Positions 120-40,665 of a DNA stretch of 64,000 nt are shown in pieces. The DNA comes from an uncultured delta proteobacterium (GTDB taxonomy: Bacteria > Desulfobacterota > Desulfobacteria > Desulfobacterales > SG8-13). Made by a program: the position numbers and the translations under genes. Position 1 is the first letter of the stretch, and each line of letters starts with the position of its first letter. Location of the stretch: NCBI GenBank assembly GCA_963848135.1, contig CAWKCK010000004.1:186001-250000 (forward strand), written 5' to 3'. Under the pieces are notes generated by a model. It did not search any database and had not been told where the DNA came from. It worked only from the letters and a program-made list of their open reading frames with translations.

Positions 120-422
120 ATGACTATAAGAGCAAACATATCTAATGAGGTTTTATTCAAAATCAAAGGTCTCAAGGAAGAGTTGGCAGATCGGTACTCA
201 GTTCTTAGCATCGGTGTATTTGGGTCGGCGGTAAAAGGGCGCTACAGTAAGGAAAGCGATGTCGACATTTTGGTTGAATTGAATGATCCGACTTTTGATC
301 ATTACATGGAGCTTAAATTCCGATTGGAGGAAATATTAGGGCGTGATGTGGACTTGGTTCTTAAGGATTCGCTCAAACCCAGATTGAGGACGGTTATTGA
401 AAAAGAGGTTCGCTATGTCTAG
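120..422 (+). CDS. Minimal nucleotidyltransferase (MNT) antitoxin
   Basis: GVFGS...SDVDILVE motif, 100 aa, overlaps a downstream DUF86 gene. Confidence 0.9.
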   Translation: MTIRANISNEVLFKIKGLKEELADRYSVLSIGVFGSAVKGRYSKESDVDILVELNDPTFDHYMELKFRLEEILGRDVDLVLKDSLKPRLRTVIEKEVRYV

Positions 423-1770: not shown

Positions 1771-3004
1771 TTACACGGTGGCAACCTTGAGGATCTTTAG
1801 CCCCTTTCTGATATTATATGCAGCCTGACGGCACCAGACATCGAATTTATTTTTGGTAGTCGTTGTAAATCTTGCTCTTTTAGCCTGATCGTGCAGATGG
1901 CTGATGCCGAAGTATTGCTCAACAATGTAGCGAACCTTTGAGATTGGATTTATTGCGTTCAATTTCAATATTCAGTAAGCTTGGCAGTGGTGGAATCTTT
2001 TCGCATGATGCCATCGGCGATTTTGTTTGTGGACAAGAAATTTCGATTGGGATGACCAGCATAGCCTTTATCGGCATAGACCTTTTTAATGTTTTGTTTG
2101 GTATGACGACTAAAAACCGTACAGTAAGACAGGTAGTTGGTATCATTAACCGAGGCCGGTGTAATAGTAGTGGCCAGGATAAAGCCGTGATTGGTATCAA
2201 CGGCGGCATGTTCTTTAAGACCAAAGTGGGGGACATCGTTTTTGACAGTCCAGTTTGACTCCAGGTCCCGGCAGAACTTGAGCGGCTTGCCATTTTTATC
2301 GAGCTTTACCTTCAGGAGTATTTCTTTTGTCTCTATGTTTTTTAAGATCATCATTGCTGAGAGGCTGGCTGGCGGATTGCACCAGGCGGGCATCAACGGC
2401 AATGCCCTCGTTGATGGTCAGACCCTGTCCTTCAAACTGGCGCAGGATTTCGGAGTTGAGTTGATCCATGGCATCTTTGGACAAACGAGATCTAAAGCGA
2501 GAGAAGGTGGAATGATCCGGCGAGGGTTTATCCAAGGGCAGTTGCAGGAACTTTTTAAAGGACAGCCGATCGTTGATCTGGTTTTCCAGTTCGGGATCGG
2601 AGTTAATGCGGAACCACTTTTGCAGCATGAGGCATTTAAAAAGCAACAGAGGCGGGTAGGCATCGGCGCCTTCAGCGCTGGTGCCGACAGTGTAATGGCT
2701 CATTAAGACGGATTGGATTCTGTCCCAATTCAAGGGAACTGTTAAGTTTATCCATGAGTTTGAGGCTGCGGTTATGTTTGAGAGAGTTTGCCAGAGCAAA
2801 GTCGGCGAATCCGAGATTCTTTTTCATCTTTTTATAGCCCATATGATTCCTCCAAGTGGTTGATATTTACAGGATTTATGGCATAAAATAGATGAAAAAA
2901 CAAGTTAAAACAGATAGATATGATAATTAATGAGTTATTTTTTGGAGAATAATTCAAGGAGAAAGGCTGGGTTTAAGAGTTTTGCTGAGTTATGCAAAGG
3001 TCTC
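1771..3004 (-). mobile_element. IS5-family element with transposase (2842->1771) broken into several frames
   Basis: DDE fragments homologous to the copy at 9668..11015; terminus GAGACCTTTGCATAAC on the minus strand ends at 3004; other end not identified. Confidence 0.85.
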
Positions 3005-3531: not shown

Positions 3532-3957
3532 ACAATGACTACCATTATTACGACTTGCCCACTGTTTGACCATCCAGGCTGGAAAACGACGTCTCACGGC
3601 TCAGACAGGACAGGGTAAGCCGGAAAACGACAAGTCTGTTAAACCCGGAAATTTCATCGATTGGAGGTTTTTTTGGCCAATCGCACACCTTCGATCAAAT
3701 GATCAGATTTGTGATACCGCATCGCGGAAGGCATTTCGAGGTGATGCTTTAGTCAGTCTACCGCGATCCTCGAATAATACTGGCCATGTAAGCCTCCGGT
3801 TGACCCGAAGAATGACATCTTTTCAGCTCTTTCAATAGATCTTGCGGAGGTACAAAGTGACCCTCGGTTGTCTTTACGCTATCAAAATTCTACTTGATAT
3901 TTGGAATAGGTTGAATTAGAATCTTACCAGTAAGAATATTATAACTGGGAGTCTGTA

Positions 3958-4224
3958 ATGAAAAGTTTAGCGACAACCAAGATGTCCTCCAAGGGGCAGG
4001 TGGTTATTCCGGAGAACATCCGAAAACGATTGAAATTGACGGCCGGTTCTCGGTTCGTCGTCGTAGGGAAGGATGACGTAATCATCTTAAAGACGATAGA
4101 GCCACCCTCGATGCAGGAGTTTAATGGATTGATAAAAGAAGTGCGGCAAAAAGCTAAAAAGGCCGGTTTAAAGCGAAATGACATTTCTGAGGCTGTTTCC
4201 CAGGCGCGGCAGCGAAGCAAGTGA
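3958..4224 (+). CDS. AbrB/MazE-family antitoxin
   Basis: TKMSSKGQVVIPENIRKRL. Confidence 0.9.
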   Translation: MKSLATTKMSSKGQVVIPENIRKRLKLTAGSRFVVVGKDDVIILKTIEPPSMQEFNGLIKEVRQKAKKAGLKRNDISEAVSQARQRSK

Positions 4225-4891
4225 GGGTCGTCTGATCACAGAAATTTCACCAATTGGAGGATTTCATGGCCAAGGCACTTCAAAACGAAGCTGTAGTTCA
4301 TCTACCGCTAGTTTTGGATAACGCAGGCAATGATAGCCTCCGGCTGGCCTGAAAGGTGAAATCTTTTCAGATCTTTTTAATTCCTGGTGACACTATGATA
4401 GGAATTATTAATGGATAAGCCAAATTATTCAAAAATACTCCTGCCCATTTTCTTTATAGTAATTTCTGAAATGATTTCATGAAAATTTTGGGAATGATGC
4501 GAATGTGTTTGTCTCGGGAATATTTTTCAGCGGTCCGCCTTTCAAAATATTGGAAGCATGGCGCGATGGACGATTGGAGGTGGTGGTTTCACCGGAAATA
4601 CTTGAAGAGTATTATCGAGTTGGCGAAATCTTGAGCAACCGCTATCCAGACGTGGATGTCACACCCGTTTTGGAATTTATTACGATAAATGCAGAGATAG
4701 TTTCACCAACAACTCTCGAGGAGCCCATTTGCGCTGATCCGGATGACGACAAATTTTTTACGTGCGCCATTGAAGGACGCTGCTCCATTATTATCAGTGG
4801 TGATAAACACTTGCTCGACAAATCTGGTTACGCTAAGGTCAGCGTGCAGAGACCACGCGATTTTATGGATAAATTTTTGGTAAGAGTTTGA
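4221..4891 (+). pseudogene. PIN-domain toxin interrupted after about codon 5 by a ~260-bp MITE
   Basis: GTG4221 reads MRVV, then the insert, then DANVFVSGIFF...DPDDDKF...IISGDKHLL. Confidence 0.8.
4236..4494. mobile_element. MITE family M1, diverged copy
   Basis: Ends TCACAGAAATTTCAC / TTTCATGAAAATTTTGGGA; interior similar to 57305..57566. Confidence 0.7.
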
Positions 4892-5175
4892 GAAAAGGGT
4901 GCACAAAGCGGTATCGTCCCGCAACGGCGGGACTACATAAAATCGCTCAGCGATTTTATTCAGCCAATAGAACCAATAAAACTGTAGTTCCTACCAATCA
5001 AACCAATTGAACCAATAAAACAAATAAAATAGCCTTTTCTATTCCTTAATTCGCTATCCACATGATTGTAAATATCATAACTGTTTGTAATCGATTATAG
5101 AAATGAACGTTTGACAGGGGAATACAAGATGTCCCCAAAGTCTCTAATGATCGAAACGATGGAATATTGTAATTA

Positions 5176-5412
5176 ATGAAAACGACACAATATTTTGAAT
5201 ACATGAAAAAAAGATCGGATCGGGTTTATATTAAGGATAAATGGATAACATTTGTTGTTGATAATCCGATAAAAACTGAAATCCAATCGGATGGAAGAAT
5301 TAGAAAATGGGCTAAAATAGAAGAGGTTAATAAATATCTCAGGGTGATTTTGTTAGAAGATAGCGAAACAGTGCATAATGCCTTTTTTGATCGCTCCTTT
5401 AAGGAGGAATAA
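5176..5412 (+). CDS. Putative toxin (DUF4258/RelE-like) of a TA pair
   Basis: 78 aa, DGRIRKW...YLRVILLED..VHNAFFDR; immediately upstream of a DUF2283-like gene. Confidence 0.7.
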   Translation: MKTTQYFEYMKKRSDRVYIKDKWITFVVDNPIKTEIQSDGRIRKWAKIEEVNKYLRVILLEDSETVHNAFFDRSFKEE

Positions 5413-5414
5413 CA

Positions 5415-5621
5415 ATGAAAGTAAAATATTTTCCAGATACAGATACCGCTCACGTTGAATTTACGACCGGCGAAGTTCGGGAGACGAAAGAAATAAGCGA
5501 AAATATTTATGTGGACATAGATGAATTTGGTAACTTAGTGAGCATGACAATCGAGCACGCAAAAGCTAATGCAGGATTGTGGGAATTCTCTTATCAAGAT
5601 ATGACTCCCCAAGCGATGTGA
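5415..5621 (+). CDS. DUF2283-family putative antitoxin
   Basis: MKVKYFPDTDTAHVEF...VDIDEFGNLVSMTIEHA; strong RBS AAGGAGG. Confidence 0.8.
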   Translation: MKVKYFPDTDTAHVEFTTGEVRETKEISENIYVDIDEFGNLVSMTIEHAKANAGLWEFSYQDMTPQAM

Positions 5622-6207
5622 GACCGGAATTCGATTCTATCGTAATACTGGATGCTAAAAAGCGGATCCATAAACCAACCCATGTTATTTACCAGCTTGA
5701 GGAAAAAGATGCCGCATCAGCATAATAGCGGTTCTTGAAAGATTCAGCAGCTTGAATTGATTCACCCGAAGGGTCGGCTGATTATCCTTTGCGAATGTCC
5801 GCAAAGGAAAAGTATCTTTGGTCTGTGTCTGTCTGTAAGAATCTGTGTCCATAATATCGTTTGCCTTTGAGCTTTGAGCTTTCAGCCTTGAGCTCACTTC
5901 CTATTGTCTGTGCCTGCCCGGTCCGCTCGTAGGTCCGGAAGATCGTACTGGGGTTAAATTCTGCAATGCAGACCCCTACGGGGATTTAACTGGGTAAATC
6001 TGTGGCTAATAATTCCATAATTTTGTTTTGCCCTTTGAGCTTCATATCAGCGACAACGCCGGTTACATAAAATCGCGTACGATTTTATCCCGATATAAAG
6101 TTTAAAAGTTGAGAACGTCCCCAAAAGCTCTGAATTCGAAATTGACGATTTGTTCATATTTTTATGGATGTTCCCAAGATCCCCAATCTGTTCAACAGGA
6201 GGAAAAC

Positions 6208-6420
6208 GTGAAATATCGTGTATTAATCGAACAAGATGAAGATGGCATGTTTGTAGCCGAAGTACCAGCTTTGCCTGGATGTGTTTCTCAAGGTAAAACA
6301 CGAAACGAGGCGGTGCTGAATATTCAAGAAGCCATTGCTGTATATTTGGAAAGCTTAAAAGCTCATAATGAACCAATTCCCCCTTCTATTAACGAGGAAG
6401 TGGTAGAGGTTTCAGTGTGA
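6208..6420 (+). CDS. hicB: HicB-family antitoxin
   Basis: YRVLIEQDEDGMFVAEVPALPGCVSQGKT; RBS AGGAGG before GTG6208. Confidence 0.9.
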   Translation: MKYRVLIEQDEDGMFVAEVPALPGCVSQGKTRNEAVLNIQEAIAVYLESLKAHNEPIPPSINEEVVEVSV

Positions 6421-6903
6421 GCAACCTACCTCAAGTTTCTGGTCGTAAAGTCGTTAACCCGAATATTTCATGAAATCTTTTCGCCACTATGAGTAAGTTA
6501 ATTTAATTTTAGATACTTGACATGAAATGGACGTATTTTGGTTAGAGTACAATTTGCAACTTATGAATTTTAGAGAAAAGCCGAAAAGTTTTCACCTCTT
6601 GGGCACTCCCTGAGGCATCCATTGGCTGCGTTATCAAAAGCTTGCAGTAGGTTGACTACGGCGGCACCCTTGAGTGCCTTGCCATTGAATCCCTCAGGGA
6701 CGTGAAATGTCCGGGTTAAGGTATTACTGCAAATTGGTTATGAAAAAGATAGGCAAAAGGGAAGCCATATCGTCATGCGGCAAGTATCATATCCCCATAG
6801 GCGTATCGTAGTTCCAGATCATAAGGAGGTGGCGAAGGGAACGCTACGAGCAATCATTCGATACGCAGGTCTATCAGTAGAGGGATTTACAAAATTACTA
6901 TAA
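6417..6903 (+). pseudogene. hicA: HicA toxin split by MITE M1
   Basis: Removing 6458..6719 gives MSNLPQVSGRKVVKVLLQIGYEKDRQKGSHIVMRQ...VPDHKEVAKGTLRAII...LL*. Confidence 0.9.
6457..6716. mobile_element. MITE family M1 (~260 bp)
   Basis: TIRs ACCCGAATATTTCA / TGAAATGTCCGGGT; TTAA on both flanks; inverted paralogue at 57305..57566. Confidence 0.9.
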
Positions 6904-7063
6904 ACTATCACCAGCCAGACATTGATTGTCATTACTTTGACCTTTCAGCTTTGAGCCCTCTATACAATCCAAGTGCTCTAAACAGGACAAAACGGATAGA
7001 CCAAGGAGTATAGAAACTTATAATTTATTGGGCGTCCCCGAAAACACAATAAGGAATAAAATA

Positions 7064-7273
7064 ATGCGTAATTTTACGGCCATCATCGAAAAGTGCTCGG
7101 ATACGGGTCTATATGTTGGTTTTGTGCCAGGTTTCCCCGGTGCTCATTCACAGGGCGAAACACTAGATGAACTAAACGAAAATCTTAAAGAGGTAATTTC
7201 TTTGTTACTAGAAGACGGTGAACCAAGATTGGAAGCCGAATTCATCGGGACTCAAAATGTGGTGGTGGCCTGA
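7064..7273 (+). CDS. hicB: HicB-family antitoxin
   Basis: FTAIIEKC.DTGLYVGFVPGFPGAHSQGETLDEL. Confidence 0.85.
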   Translation: MRNFTAIIEKCSDTGLYVGFVPGFPGAHSQGETLDELNENLKEVISLLLEDGEPRLEAEFIGTQNVVVA

Positions 7274-7275
7274 AC

Positions 7276-7499
7276 ATGGGAAGCATCCCGGTTCCTAAAC
7301 AAAAGATGTGGCCGCTATTCTGGTGAGACTCGGCTTTGAGGAGGTCAGGCAGAGAGGCTCTCACAAACAGTTTCGTCACCCGGATGGGCGTTTTACAACA
7401 TTGCCCTACCATGCGAACAGAGATATTTCCCCCATCTTATTGCGTCAGATAGCCAAAGACATCAACCTGACTATTGAAGAGTTCATAAGCAATCGTTGA
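7276..7499 (+). pseudogene. hicA: HicA toxin with 5' frameshift
   Basis: ATG7276 (MGSIPV) is out of frame with VAAILVRLGFEEVRQRGSHKQFRHPDGR. Confidence 0.75.
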
Positions 7500-7950
7500 T
7501 CAACCCAAAGCTACAACTAAGCGCCGTAGGCGGAGCGGTTTTCATTGAGCGCCTTCTCCCGCTCGATGAAAAAATAATAACCCTCCGCGTTCTCCGCGCC
7601 TCGAGCGAAGCGGGTGGTGAAATCTCGTTAATCTTTCAGCTTTGAACTTTGAGCTCATATCCGCCTTGCCCCCTTTTTTTCCGGGCTCAACGGGCCCAAC
7701 CGGCTAAATTTATCCTGTTAAATTCACGATAGTGAAAAGCGAAGCTTATTTAACGGGACAGGCTTAACCGGCCCCCTTTGTAGGGCCAAATAGGAAACTT
7801 ATAATTTAATGGGCGTTATATATTGAAATAACTAAAGAATATACTGCCACGAGTAGTAAAAAGAAAAGTAATTATCGCCTTGAAAAAAAGATAACCTCCT
7901 AATAGCATAAAAGTCAGCAAAACTTAAACATCTGCCAAAAGGAGGTTATC

Positions 7951-9235
7951 GTGAAGCATGACAACGTTACCAAGTACGTCGAGTTCTGTCAATTCCGACA
8001 AGAGATCCGAGGATCGACAGAGCATGTCATCGTCGGCATCGATGTGGCAAAGGATCGCCACCACGCTTTTTTCGGTACCGCTATGGGCCGAACACTGCTC
8101 AAAAGACTGCTCTTTGACAACACCGCAGCAGGCTTCGCCAAGTTGCTGGAGCGCGTCGACCAGCTTAAGGCCCGCTATGGTCTGAGCAAGGCCGCCTTTG
8201 CATTGGAGCCGACGGGTAACTACCATAAACCACTGGCCCACTGGCTTTTGGAGCAAGGACAACTGCTGGTGCTGGTCTCCAACCATGCCATTGCCGAGAA
8301 CCGCCAGACATTGGACGGCCGGTGGGATAAGAACGACACCAAAGACAGTGCCAATGTGGCTGACTTGGTCTCCCAGGGCAAGTGCCAGTTCTTTGAAAAA
8401 CCGGCTGCGGACCTGTTGGAATTGCGCACGTTGCTGTCGCTGCGCAAGCGACTCAAGAAGCAAGAGCATGCGATTCGCATGCAGATCCGCAATGGGTTGG
8501 TGGCCAGGCACTTTCCGGAACTGGACCGGCACTGGGGAAGCTGTCTGACCGAGAACTTGGCAATCGTGCGCTGGTGTCTGGATCCGCGCACAATAGCGGC
8601 TATGGCCTTTTAACGATTTTCTGCGCCTGGTTACCACCCGTGATCGTGGTCTGCGGCAGCTAAAACGGTTGCGGACAATCCATGAGTTGGCCGCAAGTTC
8701 GATCGGCTGCCCGGTGAATGAAGCCACAGTATTTGAGGCCCAAACACTGGTGGAGCGCTTCTATGATCTGCGAGAGCGTATCGAACAAACCGAGGCGCAA
8801 ATAGAGTCGATTTGCCGGCGTTTTGCCGCATACCGGTGGTTGCGGACGATACCCGGATTTGGCCCTTACGTCTGCTCGCAGGTGTTGGCAAAAATCGGAG
8901 ACCCCCACCGATTCAAGGGGCGCAAACAACTGATCCGGCTGGCTGGTTTTGATCTGAACGCCAAGCGGAGCGGCAAACGCAGCCGGACGGCTGTGCCGGT
9001 GATCTCCAAACGCGGCAATAGTGATCTGAGATATGCGCTGTATCAGGCGGCGCTGATCGCTTCAATTCAAGACACCGGCTTCCGCGCACTGTACACCGGC
9101 TATTTGAAAGGCCGTGAAAAGGAGCGGGGCATCCGAACCAAAATGCGGGTCAAGCTGGCTGCCAAGATGCTGGTCATCGCTTGGACGATAATGAGAACTG
9201 AAACTGGTTTTAATCCGAGCATGCTCGGAGTCTGA
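7951..9235 (+). mobile_element. IS110-family recombinase gene, frameshifted at ~8610, followed by a long 3' non-coding end
   Basis: GIDVAK, LEPTG, KNDTKDS (DEDD domain); IPGFG...SG...ISKRGN..LR (Tnp20 domain). Confidence 0.9.
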
Positions 9236-10468
9236 GGGTAGAGCCCGCAAACAAATCGTGTATCGGCGAGAGAGCCCGTGAATAGGCGTAGGAGCGAAAC
9301 AACTCCGGGAGGGACAATTCCAGGGCCTCTCACTGAACTCTAAGCCTGGATAAGGAATGCTTGAGGCCGACACCAACGGTTCGGATCTCGGATAAACGTA
9401 ACGCTGAGGCGCAGAGTTCGCCGGCAGCTTCATGTAAGCCTGCCGAAGGGAGAGAAAACTCGTCGAAAAAGTGAGAGCTTTGAAAATTTGGTTAGATTAC
9501 CGATTTTATGATTTCTGTCAAATTTTTTACTAAAGTGAGATAAAATTCAGTCTGATATTAGAATTTGTTCATGAAAATTACGTTTTTTCTGGCATTAAAT
9601 AGGTGTTACAAGATCGTTTTCAAGCTGGCCCACAGGTTTTATCCACCCCCGGGCGCACCTATCCACCTTATACGGTAGCGACCTTCCGGATCTTTAATCC
9701 CTTGCGGATATTATAGGCCGCCTGGCGACACCAAGCATCGAAATTGTTTTTTGCGATGGTAGTAAATCTTGCTCTTTTAGCTCCATCGTGCAGGTGACTG
9801 ATTCCGAAGTATTGTTCAACGATATATCTGACTTTTGAAATTTTTGTGTTTCGCTCTATTTCATATTCAGTGATTTTGGCTGTGGTCGAGTCTTTTCGCA
9901 TAATCCCATCGGCGATTTCATTAAGGGCCAGGAAATCCCGGTTGGGCTGACCAGCATATCCTTTGTCGGCATAAACCTTTTCGATAGGTTGTTTGGTGTG
10001 GCGGCTGAAAACGGTACAATAGGGCAGGTAATTGGTATCATGCACGGAAGCCGGGGTCATGGTGGTGGCCAGAATAAAGCCATGTTTGGTATCAACGGAG
10101 GCATGTTCTTTAAGGCCGAAGTGGGGTTCATCGTTTTGCACGACCCAATTGGATTCGAGGTCTCTTGAGAACTTGCGAATATTGCCATTTTTATCGAGTT
10201 TACCTTCAGGAGTATTTCGTTGTTCTCTAACTTCTTTAAGTTGATCATTACTGAGGGGACGGCTGGCGGATTTAACGAGCCTGGCATCGACAGCAACGCC
10301 CTCGTTGATAGTGAGCCCCTGACCTTCAAACTGACGCAGGATCTCGGAGTTAAGCTGATCCATAGCTTGTTTGGACAATCGGGATCTGAAGCGTGAGAAA
10401 GTGGAGTGGTCCGGAGAGGGTTTGCTCAAGGGCAGACCGAGGAACTTTTTAAACGACAGCCGGTCGTT

Positions 10469-10748
10469 CACCCGGTGAAATTGTTTGAGGATTAATGTAT
10501 TACACATATGTTCTGCATAGTGAGAAGGATGGCCAGCTATATGTAGGCTTCACAAAGGACCTCAAACAAAGATTTGATCTGCATAACAAAGGGCGGATTG
10601 AATCAACAAAAGATAGACGGCCATTGAAACTGATCTATTACGAAGCTTGTACAGATAGAGAAGATGCTACTAAGCGTGAAAAACACCTAAAGACACACTA
10701 CGGGCGAATGTATCTAAAGAAACGACTCAAATCTTATTTCACTGGGTA
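10469..10748 (+). mobile_element. 280-bp inverted-repeat-bounded element carrying a GIY-YIG gene
   Basis: IRs ACCCGGTGAAAT (10470) / ATTTCACTGGGT (10747); removing it restores the host reading frame. Confidence 0.85.
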
Positions 10749-10749
10749 A
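10495..10749 (+). CDS. Small GIY-YIG nuclease
   Basis: YYTYVL...LYVGFT.DL..R...H...YYE....A.KRE..LK. Confidence 0.9.
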   Translation: MYYTYVLHSEKDGQLYVGFTKDLKQRFDLHNKGRIESTKDRRPLKLIYYEACTDREDATKREKHLKTHYGRMYLKKRLKSYFTG

Positions 10750-11395
10750 ATCTGGTTTTCCAGTTCGGGATCGGAGTTGATGCGGAACCACTTCTGGAGC
10801 ATCAGGCATTTAAAGAGCAGCAGAGGCGGATAGGCATCGGCGCCTTCACCACTGGTGCCGACCGTGTAATTGCTCATCAAGACCGTATTGATTCTATCCC
10901 AATCGATGGAATCAGCGATTTTTTCCATGAGTTTGAGACTGCGGTTGTGTTTGAGGGAACTGGCGAGAGCGAAATCTGCGAATCCTAAATTATTCTTCAT
11001 CTTTTTATAGCCCATATTATCCTCCGAGTAGTGATAATTGAAGGATATATGGCATAAAATAGATAAAATTACAAGTTAAAACAGATAGATATAATAATAC
11101 AGAGGAATTTTTCTGAAGAATATTCAATCAGAAAGGCTGGGATTTAGGACGCTTTCCTGAGGTTATGCAAAGGTCTCGTAACGATCAAGTCAGGGCTCAT
11201 TTACAAGCGAGTTTATCCGCCGAATTCCTTAACCAAAAACGTAGAAGATAAGTGCGTCCATTTGATTACAAATATTATAACAAGTTGTAATCAATATAAA
11301 AAAGTAAAAGCTTGACAGGGGGAATACAGGATGTCCCCAAAAACTCTATCTCCTTTTATTTCATTTCTATCTTTAATGAGCTGTCGGAGTATTGA

Positions 11396-24815: not shown

Positions 24816-25097
24816 ATGGGCAAAAAGCGAAAAAAGTACAGTTCAGAGTTCAAAGCCAAGGTTGCGTTGGCCGCGTTAAAGAACGAAGAAACCACCGCAG
24901 AGCTGGCTCAGCGCTTCGGCGTGCATCCCACAATGATCAGCGGTTGGAAACGCTCATTGCTTGAAGGCGCCGCCGAGATTTTCGATAAGGGCCAAGGCTC
25001 CCGAAAGCAAACCGATGAAAAGATCGATGAGCTTCATCGGCAAATCGGCAAGCTGAAGGTGGAAAACGATTTTTTATCACGAAAGCTCGACTTCTAA
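24816..25097 (+). CDS. IS3 transposase OrfA
   Basis: KYSSEFKAKVAL HTH; T-run near 25070 is a probable -1 frameshift site. Confidence 0.9.
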   Translation: MGKKRKKYSSEFKAKVALAALKNEETTAELAQRFGVHPTMISGWKRSLLEGAAEIFDKGQGSRKQTDEKIDELHRQIGKLKVENDFLSRKLDF

Positions 25098-25117
25098 GTG
25101 TCAAGGAGCGGCGTCAA

Positions 25118-25951
25118 ATGATCGATGCTAATGACCAGAAGTTGAGCGCGTCCAGACAGTGCGGGATATTGAACCTGAATCGCTCCACCTACTACTACAA
25201 AAAGAAACCAATTAAGCCCGAAGATCTGAAGCTGATGCGCCTGATCGATGAGCAGTATCTAAAGACACCCAGTTGGGGCAGTCGCTCGATGCGAAACCAT
25301 CTTCGCCGAATGGGCTATAAAATCAACCGTAAACGGGTTCAGCGGCTGATGCGGCTAATGGGCCTTGAGGCAATTTATCCGAAACCAAAAACCAGCCGAC
25401 CGCATCCGGCCCATAAAGTCTACCCCTACTTGCTACGAAACACGGTGGTTGACCATCCCAACCAGGTGTGGACAACCGACATCACCTACATTCCGATGAA
25501 CCGTGGCTTTATGTATCTTATTGCCGTCATGGACTGGTACAGTCGCAAAGTTTTATCCTGGCGGGTATCCAATACCCTGGATACCGATTTTTGTATCGAG
25601 GCCGTAGAAGAGGCCATCAGTCGCCACGGTACGCCAGAAATATTTAATACCGATCAAGGCGCTCAATTTACCAGTGCCGGTTTTACAAATTTACTCAAGT
25701 CGCACAATGTGCGGATCAGCATGGATGGCCGCGGCCGTGTCCAGGACAATATTTTCATTGAACGACTGTGGTGGACGCTCAAGTACCAGTATGTTTACCT
25801 GTGGTCTTTTAACAACGGTTCCGAGCTTCGGCAGGGCCTTGGCCAGTGGTTTGGGTTTTACAACGCTGAGCGGTCCCATCAGGCGCTTGACAACTTGACC
25901 CCGGATGAGGTTTACTTCGGTCTTCCCCATCCGTTTGCCGAGGCTGCTTGA
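25118..25951 (+). CDS. IS3 transposase OrfB (DDE)
   Basis: WTTDITY, NTDQGAQF, DNIFIERLW. Confidence 0.95.
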   Translation: MIDANDQKLSASRQCGILNLNRSTYYYKKKPIKPEDLKLMRLIDEQYLKTPSWGSRSMRNHLRRMGYKINRKRVQRLMRLMGLEAIYPKPKTSRPHPAHKVYPYLLRNTVVDHPNQVWTTDITYIPMNRGFMYLIAVMDWYSRKVLSWRVSNTLDTDFCIEAVEEAISRHGTPEIFNTDQGAQFTSAGFTNLLKSHNVRISMDGRGRVQDNIFIERLWWTLKYQYVYLWSFNNGSELRQGLGQWFGFYNAERSHQALDNLTPDEVYFGLPHPFAEAA

Positions 25952-26129
25952 GGCCTCGCTCCCACTACGCCCGACTCAGAGCTTAACTCTAAGCTCAGGC
26001 TGTCCAAGTGATTGGGTCCACCGCCATGTCGTGGAGTGTATCAATTAGTTTCAGAGACCAAACTGAGGAAAGATTTCAGCCTGCGAGATCAAATTTTGCG
26101 GGCAGCTGGTTCGGTAATGGATAATGCTC

Positions 26130-26407
26130 GCCCAGTTAAATAGCTTGTTTTCAATGTACTACACTTATATTCTACATAGCCAACAGGATATGAATTTTTA
26201 CGTTGGGTTTACAAAGAACCTCAAGCTAAGATTTGAGCAGCATGAGAAGGGTCTGGTGGAGTCGACGAAGCACCGGAGGCCACTCAAGCTAATCTATTAC
26301 GAAGCGTGTGTAGTTGAAAAAGATGCTTTAAAGCGAGAAAAATACTTAAAAACATACCATGGAAGAATGTTCATTAAGAGAAGACTCAAATCTTATTTAA
26401 CGGGGTA
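26130..26407 (+). mobile_element. Second GIY-YIG mini-element
   Basis: IRs CCCAGTTAAAT (26131) / ATTTAACGGGG (26405), inside the four-helix-bundle gene. Confidence 0.8.
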
Positions 26408-26408
26408 A
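26154..26408 (+). CDS. Small GIY-YIG nuclease
   Basis: 84 aa, 58/84 identical to 10495..10749 by manual ungapped alignment. Confidence 0.9.
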   Translation: MYYTYILHSQQDMNFYVGFTKNLKLRFEQHEKGLVESTKHRRPLKLIYYEACVVEKDALKREKYLKTYHGRMFIKRRLKSYLTG

Positions 26409-26672
26409 ACGTATGGATTTGATGACGGTTCGCCAAGGGAATTCATAAGATTCTTGGGCTACTCGCAAAGATCATGTGGCGAAATACAATCTCAATTATA
26501 CAGGGCAATTGATTGTCACTACATTACGAAGGATCAGTTCGATTCCGTTTATACCTTGTCGGCTGAATGCAGGAAACAAATAAAGGGCTTCAGAAAATAT
26601 CTTCGAAACTACAGTTCAAACCAAAATTCCTAAATTCCTAAATCCGCAATACATAAATTTAATTACTAAAAC

Positions 26673-40107: not shown

Positions 40108-40665
40108 GGAGTGGGGCATTCAGGAATTAAGGGATTAAGGATTAAGGAATTATAGGAAGACACTCGAACCCTTGCGTCCCTGATCCCTGATAAGAAAACT
40201 ATCTAAATGTTCAAAATTTATCCTGTGAAATTCTCAAAAGATACGAGCGAAGCGGATTTCACCGGGACGATCTCAACGATCAACGTTGGAAGTGCCTGAA
40301 GTTAAAATAGGGGACACGGATTCACGCAGACGGGCGCGGATGGGGAAAGAGCTCGAAGCTCAAGGCAACAGAAGCACGTTGGCGGTTGGAGGGTTGAGGT
40401 CGGGGGCAACCCGTAACACGCAACTCGTAACGCGCAACCCGTAATCTCAAGGGGATAAGGATTTGGAAATAGAGAATTAGGGGATATCTCACACCCGCTC
40501 CCGCTGGTCGCTCGAGCGCGTTGGGGGCGCAGAGATAATTTTTGGCGTTGAACGGGTCATCACCATATAGGTGTCGTCCGTTATCGGAATAGTTCCTCAA
40601 TAGTCTGCTATAGTTCAAGCACTTGTTTCATAAAATTTACGAAGGAAATTTTATTCAGGAAAGGA

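Follow-up and report, generated by a model that had tools for sequence, protein, structure and literature searches.

A small GIY-YIG nuclease gene whose ends and coding sequence pair in a conserved three-way junction: a probable mobile element of uncultured bacteria

The stretch of DNA analysed here (the window) comprises 64,000 nucleotides (nt) of contig CAWKCK010000004.1, positions 186,001 to 250,000, in assembly GCA_963848135.1 of an uncultured delta proteobacterium of the Desulfobacterales. It contains a transposase gene of the IS5 type, a family of insertion sequences (ISs), which is split by a unit of about 280 bp. This unit, referred to below as copy 1, consists of one open reading frame (ORF) for an 84-residue GIY-YIG nuclease between inverted repeats, and a first-pass annotation of the window had proposed that it is a selfish element with no gene other than the nuclease. 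Comparison of copy 1 with its relatives in genomes and metagenomes makes it very probable that this DNA is mobile and that the nuclease, together with a three-way junction formed by the element ends and the coding sequence, is its working unit. The coordinates of the features and the insertion sites are collected in Table 1.

A nuclease gene inserted in an IS5 transposase gene

Compared with empty sites, the net insertion at copy 1 amounts to 280 bp (10469-10748), and an inverted-repeat search found its terminal arms (10467-10481 and 10736-10750) to be complementary at 13 of 15 positions. The 12-nt repeats reported in the first-pass annotation lie inside these 15-nt arms, and its statement that the right repeat encodes the last residues, Y-F-T-G-stop, agrees with a direct reading of the sequence. 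The element is antisense to its host gene, which is split between positions 32 and 33 of the DUF772 profile; Pfam places positions 1-32 on 10749-11075, and positions 33-73 together with DDE_Tnp_1 on 9812-10471. In the alignment of this gene with its uninterrupted paralogue near the start of the window (mean column identity 78%), the gap coincides with 10469..10748 to within one base, as had been claimed. Closer empty copies agree, one in the same genome (G000:C2:13451-14041, the two flanks 90% and 85% identical) and one in a genus relative (G007:C45, flanks 89% and 94% identical). All the empty IS5 copies read CGTT/GATYTGG (the slash marking the junction), while the filled site of the window reads CGTT[CACCC...GGGTA]AATCTGG. 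The empty form was also found on contigs from three public metagenome runs, and two metagenome contigs connect position 10465 to position 10750 with four letters between them. The comparison of filled and empty IS5 sites revealed no target duplication at copy 1.

The encoded protein matches PF01541 over residues 1-71 (E 1.6e-18, 67.2 bits against a cut-off of 22.6). Among 20 aligned sequences, Y16, G18, R26, H30 and E50, which we take to be the catalytic residues, are invariant, and Y3 and Y5 are nearly so. The predicted structure (mean pLDDT 93) shows the expected beta-beta-alpha-beta-alpha core. By sequence, the nearest solved structures are 1zg2 (UPF0213 protein BH0048, E 1.1e-5) and 1ywl (EF2693, 7.7e-5), both weak matches at 25-30% identity; the top Foldseek matches are 1zg2, 7wme (At-HIGLE) and 6sei/7cq2 (Slx1), with TM scores of about 0.54-0.66 for 1zg2, 7wme and 6sei, and I-TevI takes rank 14. 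Judged by these sequence matches and the predicted fold, the protein is a probable member of the UPF0213/Slx1-like branch of the GIY-YIG nucleases. It scores 16.5 bits against TIGR01453 (group I intron endonuclease), below the cut-off of 56.05; NCBIfam yielded nothing above its cut-offs, and PADLOC assigned no defence family to the protein. A catalogued RNA or group I intron was considered and rejected, since the Rfam searches, at E up to 1 over 10300-10900 and with gathering scores for the entire window, came back empty.

A pattern scan of the whole source genome found only two full copies, copy 1 and a second one (copy 2) in the same window. Copy 2 is 69% identical to copy 1 in protein and 71% in DNA, and its ends differ from those of copy 1 by a compensating G>T and C>A change (GTG/CAC to GTT/AAC). 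It lies on the sense strand of a four-helix-bundle (23S_rRNA_IVP) gene, splitting it between profile positions 45 and 49, and a genus relative (G003:C17) encodes an uninterrupted homologue of this host gene with 81% identity. In addition, the window contains two mutually homologous mini hairpins with element-like ends and no nuclease gene, the second of which shows a compensating stem change (GTGAAAT/ATTTCAC); only the first (7707-7765) folds clearly better than shuffled sequences (z -4.7). They are probably gene-less miniatures of a related element. The hairpins form a small family of repeats of about 55-70 nt, AAATTTATCCNGTNAAATTC ... AGCGAAGC..ATTTNACNGGGAC, whose ends resemble the element ends of a lineage found in Balneolaceae (L038, L066, L079); the pattern scan detected further partial mini copies on contigs C4 and C5 (G000:C5:690972, C4:175365, C4:176718), and a match on C9 was discarded as looking like chance. 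Gene-less copies with element ends also occur elsewhere (L015:1923-2110 and L045:340-505). At L015, one IS5 gene carries both a full copy (2472-2757) and the gene-less copy; the latter has the element ends around an unrelated 31-codon ORF.

Table 1. Features of the window, junction helices in the alignment of copies, and insertion sites in target gene families
Feature	Location	Strand	Remarks
Element copy 1	10467..10750	+	outer edges of left and right 15-mers; edges uncertain by about 2 nt
Left terminal inverted repeat, helix P1 5' arm	10467..10481		TTCACCCGGTGAAAT
Helix P2 5' arm	10482..10490		leader, including GAGG ribosome-binding motif; partner 10560-10568
GIY-YIG nuclease gene, single domain, 84 residues	10495..10749	+	ORF and Pfam
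Helix P2 3' arm	10560..10568		within codons for D-L-K-Q
Helix P3 5' arm	10569..10577		codons Q-R-F-D; partner 10727-10735
Helix P3 3' arm	10727..10735		codons L-K-S-Y; directly adjoins right repeat
Right terminal inverted repeat, helix P1 3' arm	10736..10750		ATTTCACTGGGTAAA; overlaps codons Y-F-T-G-stop
C-terminal part of split IS5-type transposase (rest of DUF772, DDE domain)	9668..10468	-	ORF, Pfam
N-terminal part of split IS5-type transposase	10749..11015	-	ORF, Pfam
IS5 paralogue with empty site	about 1900..2800	-	uninterrupted but otherwise frameshifted; alignment with host gene of copy 1
Element copy 2	26127..26409	+	ORF 26154-26408; ends CTCGCCCAGTTAAAT / ATTTAACGGGGTAAA
N-terminal part of 23S_rRNA_IVP gene split by copy 2	26012..26131	+	profile positions 16-45
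C-terminal part of 23S_rRNA_IVP gene split by copy 2	26409..26633	+	profile positions 49-105
Gene-less mini hairpin with element-like ends	7707..7765	+	TATCCTGTTAAAT ... ATTTAACGGGAC
Second gene-less mini hairpin	40214..40272	+	homologous to the first
P1	alignment columns 34-48 with 323-337		pairs the two element ends
P2	alignment columns 49-59 with 145-155		pairs leader with D/N-L-K-L/Q codons
P3	alignment columns 156-164 with 314-322		pairs R-F-E/D codons with L-K-S codons
23S_rRNA_IVP	profile site about 45/48		most loci of this host family
23S_rRNA_IVP	profile sites 54/56, 50/53, about 63		L081, L082, L155
PDDEXK_3 (GxxExxY)	profile site 27/28		L020, L025, L027, L029, L041, L051, L127, L128, L150
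PDDEXK_3 (GxxExxY)	profile site 83/86		L023, L031, L049
ORF6N	end of domain		L017, L035, L044, L142
ORF6N	start of domain		L021
IS5 (DUF772)	profile site 32/33		copy 1, L013, L116-L124, others
IS5	two other sites		L015, L034
Y1_Tnp	one site		L076, L158
HTH_3	after domain		L032

Conserved ends and a three-way junction

Among proteins of similar length, 2324 clusters contain homologues of the copy 1 protein at E up to 0.001; the best 120 relatives are nearly all exactly 84 residues long and mostly encoded on short contigs. Only six of 41 related genomes, the source genome counted, contain a homologue at E up to 1e-10, and the homologues in the other related genomes belong to another clade with 36-47% identity. 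For the comparison, 80 loci were taken from species-representative genomes and 80 from metagenomes. The hosts of the genome loci include Desulfobacterales and other Thermodesulfobacteriota, Bacteroidota, Patescibacteria, Brocadiae, Chloroflexota, Elusimicrobia, Nitrospiraceae, Alpha- and Gammaproteobacteria, and others. Among 72,556 plasmid records (one match, 42%) and 50,697 phage records (seven matches, 36-43%), nothing exceeded 60% identity.

All 82 copies derived from genomes carry inverted ends with at least 10 of 15 positions matching (15 in 2 copies, 14 in 24, 13 in 23, 12 in 14, 11 in 14 and 10 in 5), which shows that the ends of copy 1 are not due to chance. In the metagenome set, the right-end pattern had no match in 32 of the 80 loci, which are more divergent or truncated and were left out; the other 48 loci contain 50 right-end places, and for 43 of these a left partner matches at no fewer than 10 of the 15 positions. 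Seven places lack such a partner, and in one of these loci (L123) the left end is visible just outside the search span. Most of the nuclease genes are intact, 95 of 115 being ORFs of 80-100 codons that run from a start codon to a stop in the right arm, while about 13 run on for a few more codons and about six are broken. Inverted ends are absent from two more distant small GIY-YIG homologues in the source genome (L005, L006) and from those of its relatives (L007-L012). Among the latter, four genes of the clade with 36-47% identity (L007, L008, L010 and L011, in genomes G037, G020, G001 and G022) directly follow a tRNA-Val/tRNA-Asp pair, and one (L009) is broken; in this tRNA-linked clade the final codons run into an apparent duplicated tRNA 3' half and the inverted ends were not found, which looks like a different arrangement of the same protein superfamily.

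The terminal repeats are only a part of the structure. A repeat search in copy 1 also returned two internal inverted repeats, both perfect and directly adjoining the terminal arms, and the resulting three helices (P1, P2 and P3) were examined in an alignment of 115 distinct copies, seven duplicates having been dropped from 122 copies with full flanks. Standard base pairs occupy 94.1% of the 3910 cells, and sliding the 3' partners by 1-3 columns lowers this to 27-50%; 21 of the 35 junction pairs show changes on both sides, and none of 500 shuffles reached any of the observed junction measures. For instance, the P1 column pair 44-327 is UA in 62 copies, GC in 46, CG in 5, GU in 1 and another combination in 1. 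P2 is almost wholly swapped between a AGCTTGAGG type and a AATTTTAAATT type with its pairing kept, columns 54-150 being GC in 55 copies, UA in 32 and CG in 21. Unconstrained minimum-energy folds of copies 1 and 2 as single-stranded DNA (ssDNA) returned the same three helices, with z scores of -3.05 (0/200 shuffles as good) and -2.37 (4/200) for the two window copies. By this covariation, the two ends make up one of the arms of a three-way junction that has been conserved and that would bring both boundaries between element and host to one point.

Junction and ends are common to every lineage, whatever its target. The ORF supplies one strand of all three helices and always occurs together with the ends, the conservation and covariation of the junction extend across phyla, and the gene-less derivatives have kept the ends. 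Among about 3300 Watson-Crick cells of the P1 core, P2 and P3 there are 53 G.T and 42 A.C wobbles; since these are rare and without strand bias, a DNA helix fits better than an RNA helix.

Target sites and evidence for independent movement

To the open frames abutting the junctions of about 125 copies we have applied Pfam. The hits to 23S_rRNA_IVP, PDDEXK_3, ORF6N, Y1_Tnp and HTH_3 are all on the strand of the element, and those to IS5 domains are all on the opposite strand. Target labels could be given to the 122 copies as follows: 23S_rRNA_IVP 26, PDDEXK_3 17, IS5 13, ORF6N 5, Y1 3 and unlabelled 58, the labels of four loci (L014, L036, L078, L136) being set by translation across the junction and not by a Pfam hit. 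The element lineages recur at fixed short sites in these families: nearest-neighbour elements share their target class in 48 of 64 cases, and copies of one genome in different targets are only 69-74% identical. Many of the unlabelled copies, in Patescibacteria and Bacteroidota, lie within operons on the strand of the downstream gene, for example before rpmE, ruvB, fpg or atpC (L033, L043, L083, L088 and others). In 18 of 48 intergenic copies, the start codon of a same-strand ORF of at least 60 codons lies between -2 and +15 nt from the first base of the element stop codon, against 7.9 expected for random places in the same loci. That the stop codon of the element precedes the start codon of an essential host gene (rpmE, ruvB, atpC, fpg) by 0-15 nt suggests that translation of the latter is coupled to the nuclease ORF.

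The orientation and the proximity to start codons of the operon copies, together with the position of the element on the sense strand in four of five target gene families, would agree with an action at the RNA level, in which the stem of the paired ends is processed in the transcript like an RNase III intervening sequence or an intron and makes the insertion harmless. Such an action is nevertheless extremely improbable: the element is antisense in all the IS5 loci with a Pfam hit in the flank, the genes that it interrupts are truncated or have lost their frame, and the unit is too small to accommodate a ribozyme. The empty Rfam searches and the wobbles, in which G.U is not in excess over A.C, also speak against it.

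In 88 copies with distinct flanks, conservation spans the whole 15-mers (TTYRCCC... / ...GGGTRAA) and a purine at -1 (74/88) and then stops, no conservation or repeat being found at flank positions beyond -1 and +1. The empty sites are TTGA in IS5 and TGAA in the Y1-transposase gene, and once filled they invariably have TT...AA. Put most simply, an insertion replaces 1-4 nt around a T-N-R-A site and duplicates nothing; several parses of the edges fit equally well, such as [CACCC..GGGTA] with one substitution or a replacement of 2-4 nt around TGA. A target duplication of AAT, visible on both sides of some intergenic copies in A/T-rich surroundings, was dropped because none is present in the two real filled/empty pairs (IS5 and Y1). 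A tandem junction GGGT/TCACCC, in which a right end is joined straight to a left end, occurs at L045 (60-505) and L131, and fits the entry of one copy at the TAAA end of its neighbour. The left end is doubled in L084 and the right end in L145. At L015, the full copy is bordered on its two sides by sequence from different IS5 insertion sites, which indicates that the interval between the sites was deleted; this deletion and the doubled ends speak for repeated activity. At L139 another left-end-like motif lies just downstream, and at L126 two elements are 480 nt apart, the second within a palindrome TTACGTAA.

Presence/absence polymorphism with defined boundaries and no target duplication was observed in two settings; for copy 1, the first-pass annotation had already noted the uninterrupted paralogue and no evident target duplication. 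The IS5 pairs involve the same genome, a genus relative and metagenome contigs. The second pair consists of L076 and a paralogue in the same genome, both Y1-transposase genes, which read GATAT-G-AATATGG when empty and GATAT-T[CACCC...GGGTA]-AATATGG when filled. Furthermore, the IS5 flanks of copy 1 are 89-94% identical to empty copies, compared with 72-78% to most other filled copies (85% over one 109-nt stretch), while the element itself is 83-86% identical to the elements of the other filled IS5 copies. The flanks are therefore nearest to empty IS5 genes and the element is nearest to elements in remoter IS5 genes, from which it follows that the element moved independently. Descent of the element is thus decoupled from descent of the host gene, and the element entered, or was precisely lost from, IS5 lineages after their divergence, always at the same site. 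A similar case is provided by L025 and L078 of one assembly, whose elements are 89% identical and occupy the same site of two paralogues with 30-nt flanks of only 33% and 43% identity, too low for homologous repair. Site choice is, on these comparisons, independent of long flank homology.

These observations bear directly on the possibility that the unit is a free-standing homing endonuclease gene, which would cut the double-stranded empty allele and be copied in by recombinational repair, the junction serving expression or mRNA stability. Sites fixed at the codon level in conserved multicopy genes (23S_rRNA_IVP 45/48, PDDEXK_3 27/28 and 83/86, DUF772 32/33), the clustering of lineages by target and the lack of a target duplication are all expected of such a gene, and the one base adjoining the junction that differs between every filled and every empty IS5 site could be a trace of co-conversion. 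No co-conversion tracts were recognisable in the IS5 flanks, however, and homologous repair would require flanks more alike than those that related elements possess (33-43% for L025/L078, 72-78% for IS5). The protein is a bare catalytic core without a DNA-binding domain and falls far below the TIGR01453 cut-off; the same ends and junction are present in every lineage regardless of the target, the ends are kept in gene-less copies, and many copies occupy unrelated intergenic sites. We regard homing as unlikely on balance, although it would explain the fixed sites and the link between lineage and target.

A non-autonomous cassette was also considered. In this case the folded ends would be read by another enzyme, for instance a host factor or a Y1/HUH transposase, and the GIY-YIG gene would be either cargo or an accessory, perhaps cutting vacated or incoming ssDNA in the way that the Ssn nucleases do in transformation. 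The gene-less copies with the same ends, two lineages within Y1_Tnp genes and the lack of a known strand-transfer activity among GIY-YIG nucleases point in this direction, and a domestication of the NTS-ssnA-NTS arrangement has been raised by Chenal et al. (PMC11893778). We nonetheless judge the cassette improbable. No DDE, HUH or tyrosine/serine (Y/S) recombinase travels with the element, as had been stated for copy 1 alone and as Pfam now indicates for the flanks of about 125 copies, where only interrupted host genes appear and no other enzyme gene recurs. The constant association of the ends with an ORF that contributes to every helix, and the integrity of most of these ORFs, are also difficult to reconcile with mere cargo, and the Y1 genes are broken targets and not partners.

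Contigs from four sequencing runs (contigs only, the highest share of sampled words in any run being 0.21) included empty-site contigs but no circle junction. One contig of an RNA library covers 10480-10630, which cannot show transcription.

Two further IS-like genes flank the region, namely a two-piece ORF (7951-8613 / 8669-9235) and an IS3-like orfA/orfB pair (24816-25951); the 66 bases right after this pair recur on contigs C1 and C2 at 91-98% identity. Just upstream of the IS cluster, at 120-1600 and 3900-7300, the translations resemble paired small nucleotidyltransferase/HEPN-type genes and other toxin-antitoxin-like pairs, a reading made from the translations and not from a family scan.

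Related systems, proposed mechanism and meaning

Full-text searches of the literature brought up no account of an element that carries only a GIY-YIG gene and has paired ends or a three-way junction. The closest published analogue found is the system of Chenal et al. (2025, Nat Commun, PMC11893778), who describe small GIY-YIG nucleases (Ssn, about 94 residues) whose gene is flanked by hairpin repeats termed NTS or SRM. These nucleases bind the hairpin repeats only as ssDNA and cut a few nucleotides upstream; an SRM hairpin is present on both sides of 42% of ssnA homologues, the NTS-ssnA-NTS arrangement is likened to an insertion sequence, and domestication is raised in the Discussion, while mobility, insertion into genes, or filled and empty sites are not reported in the parts of the article covered here. 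The present element resembles this system in its single-domain GIY-YIG protein of about 90 residues (84 here, within the Ssn size criterion of one domain and fewer than 150 residues), in hairpin-forming repeats that bracket the gene and covary with the protein lineage, in gene-less repeat copies dispersed in genomes, and in the IS-like layout. It differs in that each Ssn flank has its own local hairpin of 20-50 nt, whereas here the two ends are paired to one another and, together with the coding sequence, form a three-way junction that encloses the gene. The caution of the first-pass annotation that small GIY-YIG genes next to palindromic repeats might have been reported before was therefore apt, although the published arrangement is different and its motif is absent here. 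The available part of another article (PMC12455944) merely lists a GIY-YIG protein among genes transferred from Patescibacteria.

By sequence and fold, the best matches of the protein are UPF0213/YhbQ and Slx1/HIGLE, which are structure-selective and cut branched DNA. Those are stable cellular genes with partners or extra domains, and we know of no such protein reported as the gene of a mobile element. The GIY-YIG homing genes, as generally known, share with the present unit its nuclease-only selfish character, fixed sites in conserved genes, and filled and empty alleles without target duplication; they differ from it in needing no terminal repeats, in having no gene-less copies with conserved ends, and in requiring flanking homology. 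Their proteins, such as the T4 Seg proteins and I-TevI, have about 250 residues and contain a DNA-binding domain. The IS200/IS605 elements and REP/RAYT systems, again from general knowledge, are similar in their folded single-stranded ends, short specific targets, lack of a target duplication and small gene-less hairpin relatives across the genome. They use a Y1 HUH transposase with covalent intermediates, in contrast to the hydrolytic GIY-YIG nuclease that is the only enzyme here, and have separate subterminal hairpins instead of one junction closed by both ends; the IS200/IS605 transposase TnpA is absent from the element, and Y1_Tnp genes appear only as broken targets. Classical insertion sequences and miniature inverted-repeat transposable elements (MITEs) likewise have terminal inverted repeats, one gene and gene-less miniatures, whereas the present element has neither a DDE or other known transposase nor a target duplication. 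To our knowledge, a length of about 280 bp is well below that of the autonomous IS elements described so far.

The observation of an inserted GIY-YIG unit by the first-pass annotation is thus confirmed and its interpretation is supported; the contrary findings it had named, such as a lack of filled and empty pairs, were looked for and none was obtained. The three-way junction, the second full copy and the two mini copies in the window, and the lineage-specific target sites go beyond it. With moderate confidence, we interpret copy 1 as a selfish mobile element of about 280 bp that has the 84-residue GIY-YIG nuclease as its sole gene and acts through a folded single-stranded form. P1 pairs the ends, P2 the leader with codons ~22-25, and P3 codons ~25-28 with codons ~78-80. 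In the mechanism that we propose, by analogy with the Ssn nucleases and the structure-selective relatives in fold, the nuclease would recognise the folded element on ssDNA and cut at the foot of P1. Once freed or copied, the element would enter a short site of the form purine-T..A (TTGA, TGAA and TAAA were seen), 1-4 nt would be replaced on entry, hence the constant TT[element]AA of filled sites, and host repair or ligation would complete the insertion. For movement by way of a single-stranded, structure-cut intermediate, taken by itself, we would put the chances slightly short of even.

Several points weigh against this interpretation. GIY-YIG enzymes are hydrolases without a known strand-transfer step, so that insertion would need help from the host, and the link between lineage and target also fits homing by double-strand-break repair. 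The wobble counts show no strand preference and thus do not pick out either strand as the substrate. The edges cannot be placed better than to about 2 nt, and one base is left over in the four-helix-bundle lineage. An SRM/NTS motif within 500 bp of the gene on both sides, a criterion of the Ssn family, is absent: the published degenerate SRM pattern occurs nowhere in the 64-kb window and 34 times in the 6.03-Mb genome (both strands). No excision product, circle junction or very recent duplicate was seen in the genomes and contigs examined, and the two copies of the source genome, only 71% identical, are old, so that nothing here shows current activity. All the evidence is comparative.

In its furthest form, which we put forward tentatively, the interpretation would make this the smallest autonomous DNA transposon known and a new prokaryotic class, in which an 84-residue GIY-YIG nuclease is the sole protein and an ssDNA three-way junction presents both ends for excision and site-specific re-insertion; helix and nuclease would co-evolve, each lineage being a structure-addressed system for cutting and inserting ssDNA. 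If the nuclease alone moves the 280-bp unit, GIY-YIG would join the few enzyme classes that drive DNA transposition in bacteria, and a new lower size limit would be set for an autonomous element. The recently described ssDNA-specific GIY-YIG nucleases would, if this holds, gain a natural biological role, and the covarying pairs of junction and nuclease would be candidate tools for cutting and inserting at folded ssDNA. The family is abundant across many phyla and breaks or precedes genes, and it thereby affects both annotation and genome evolution in uncultured bacteria.

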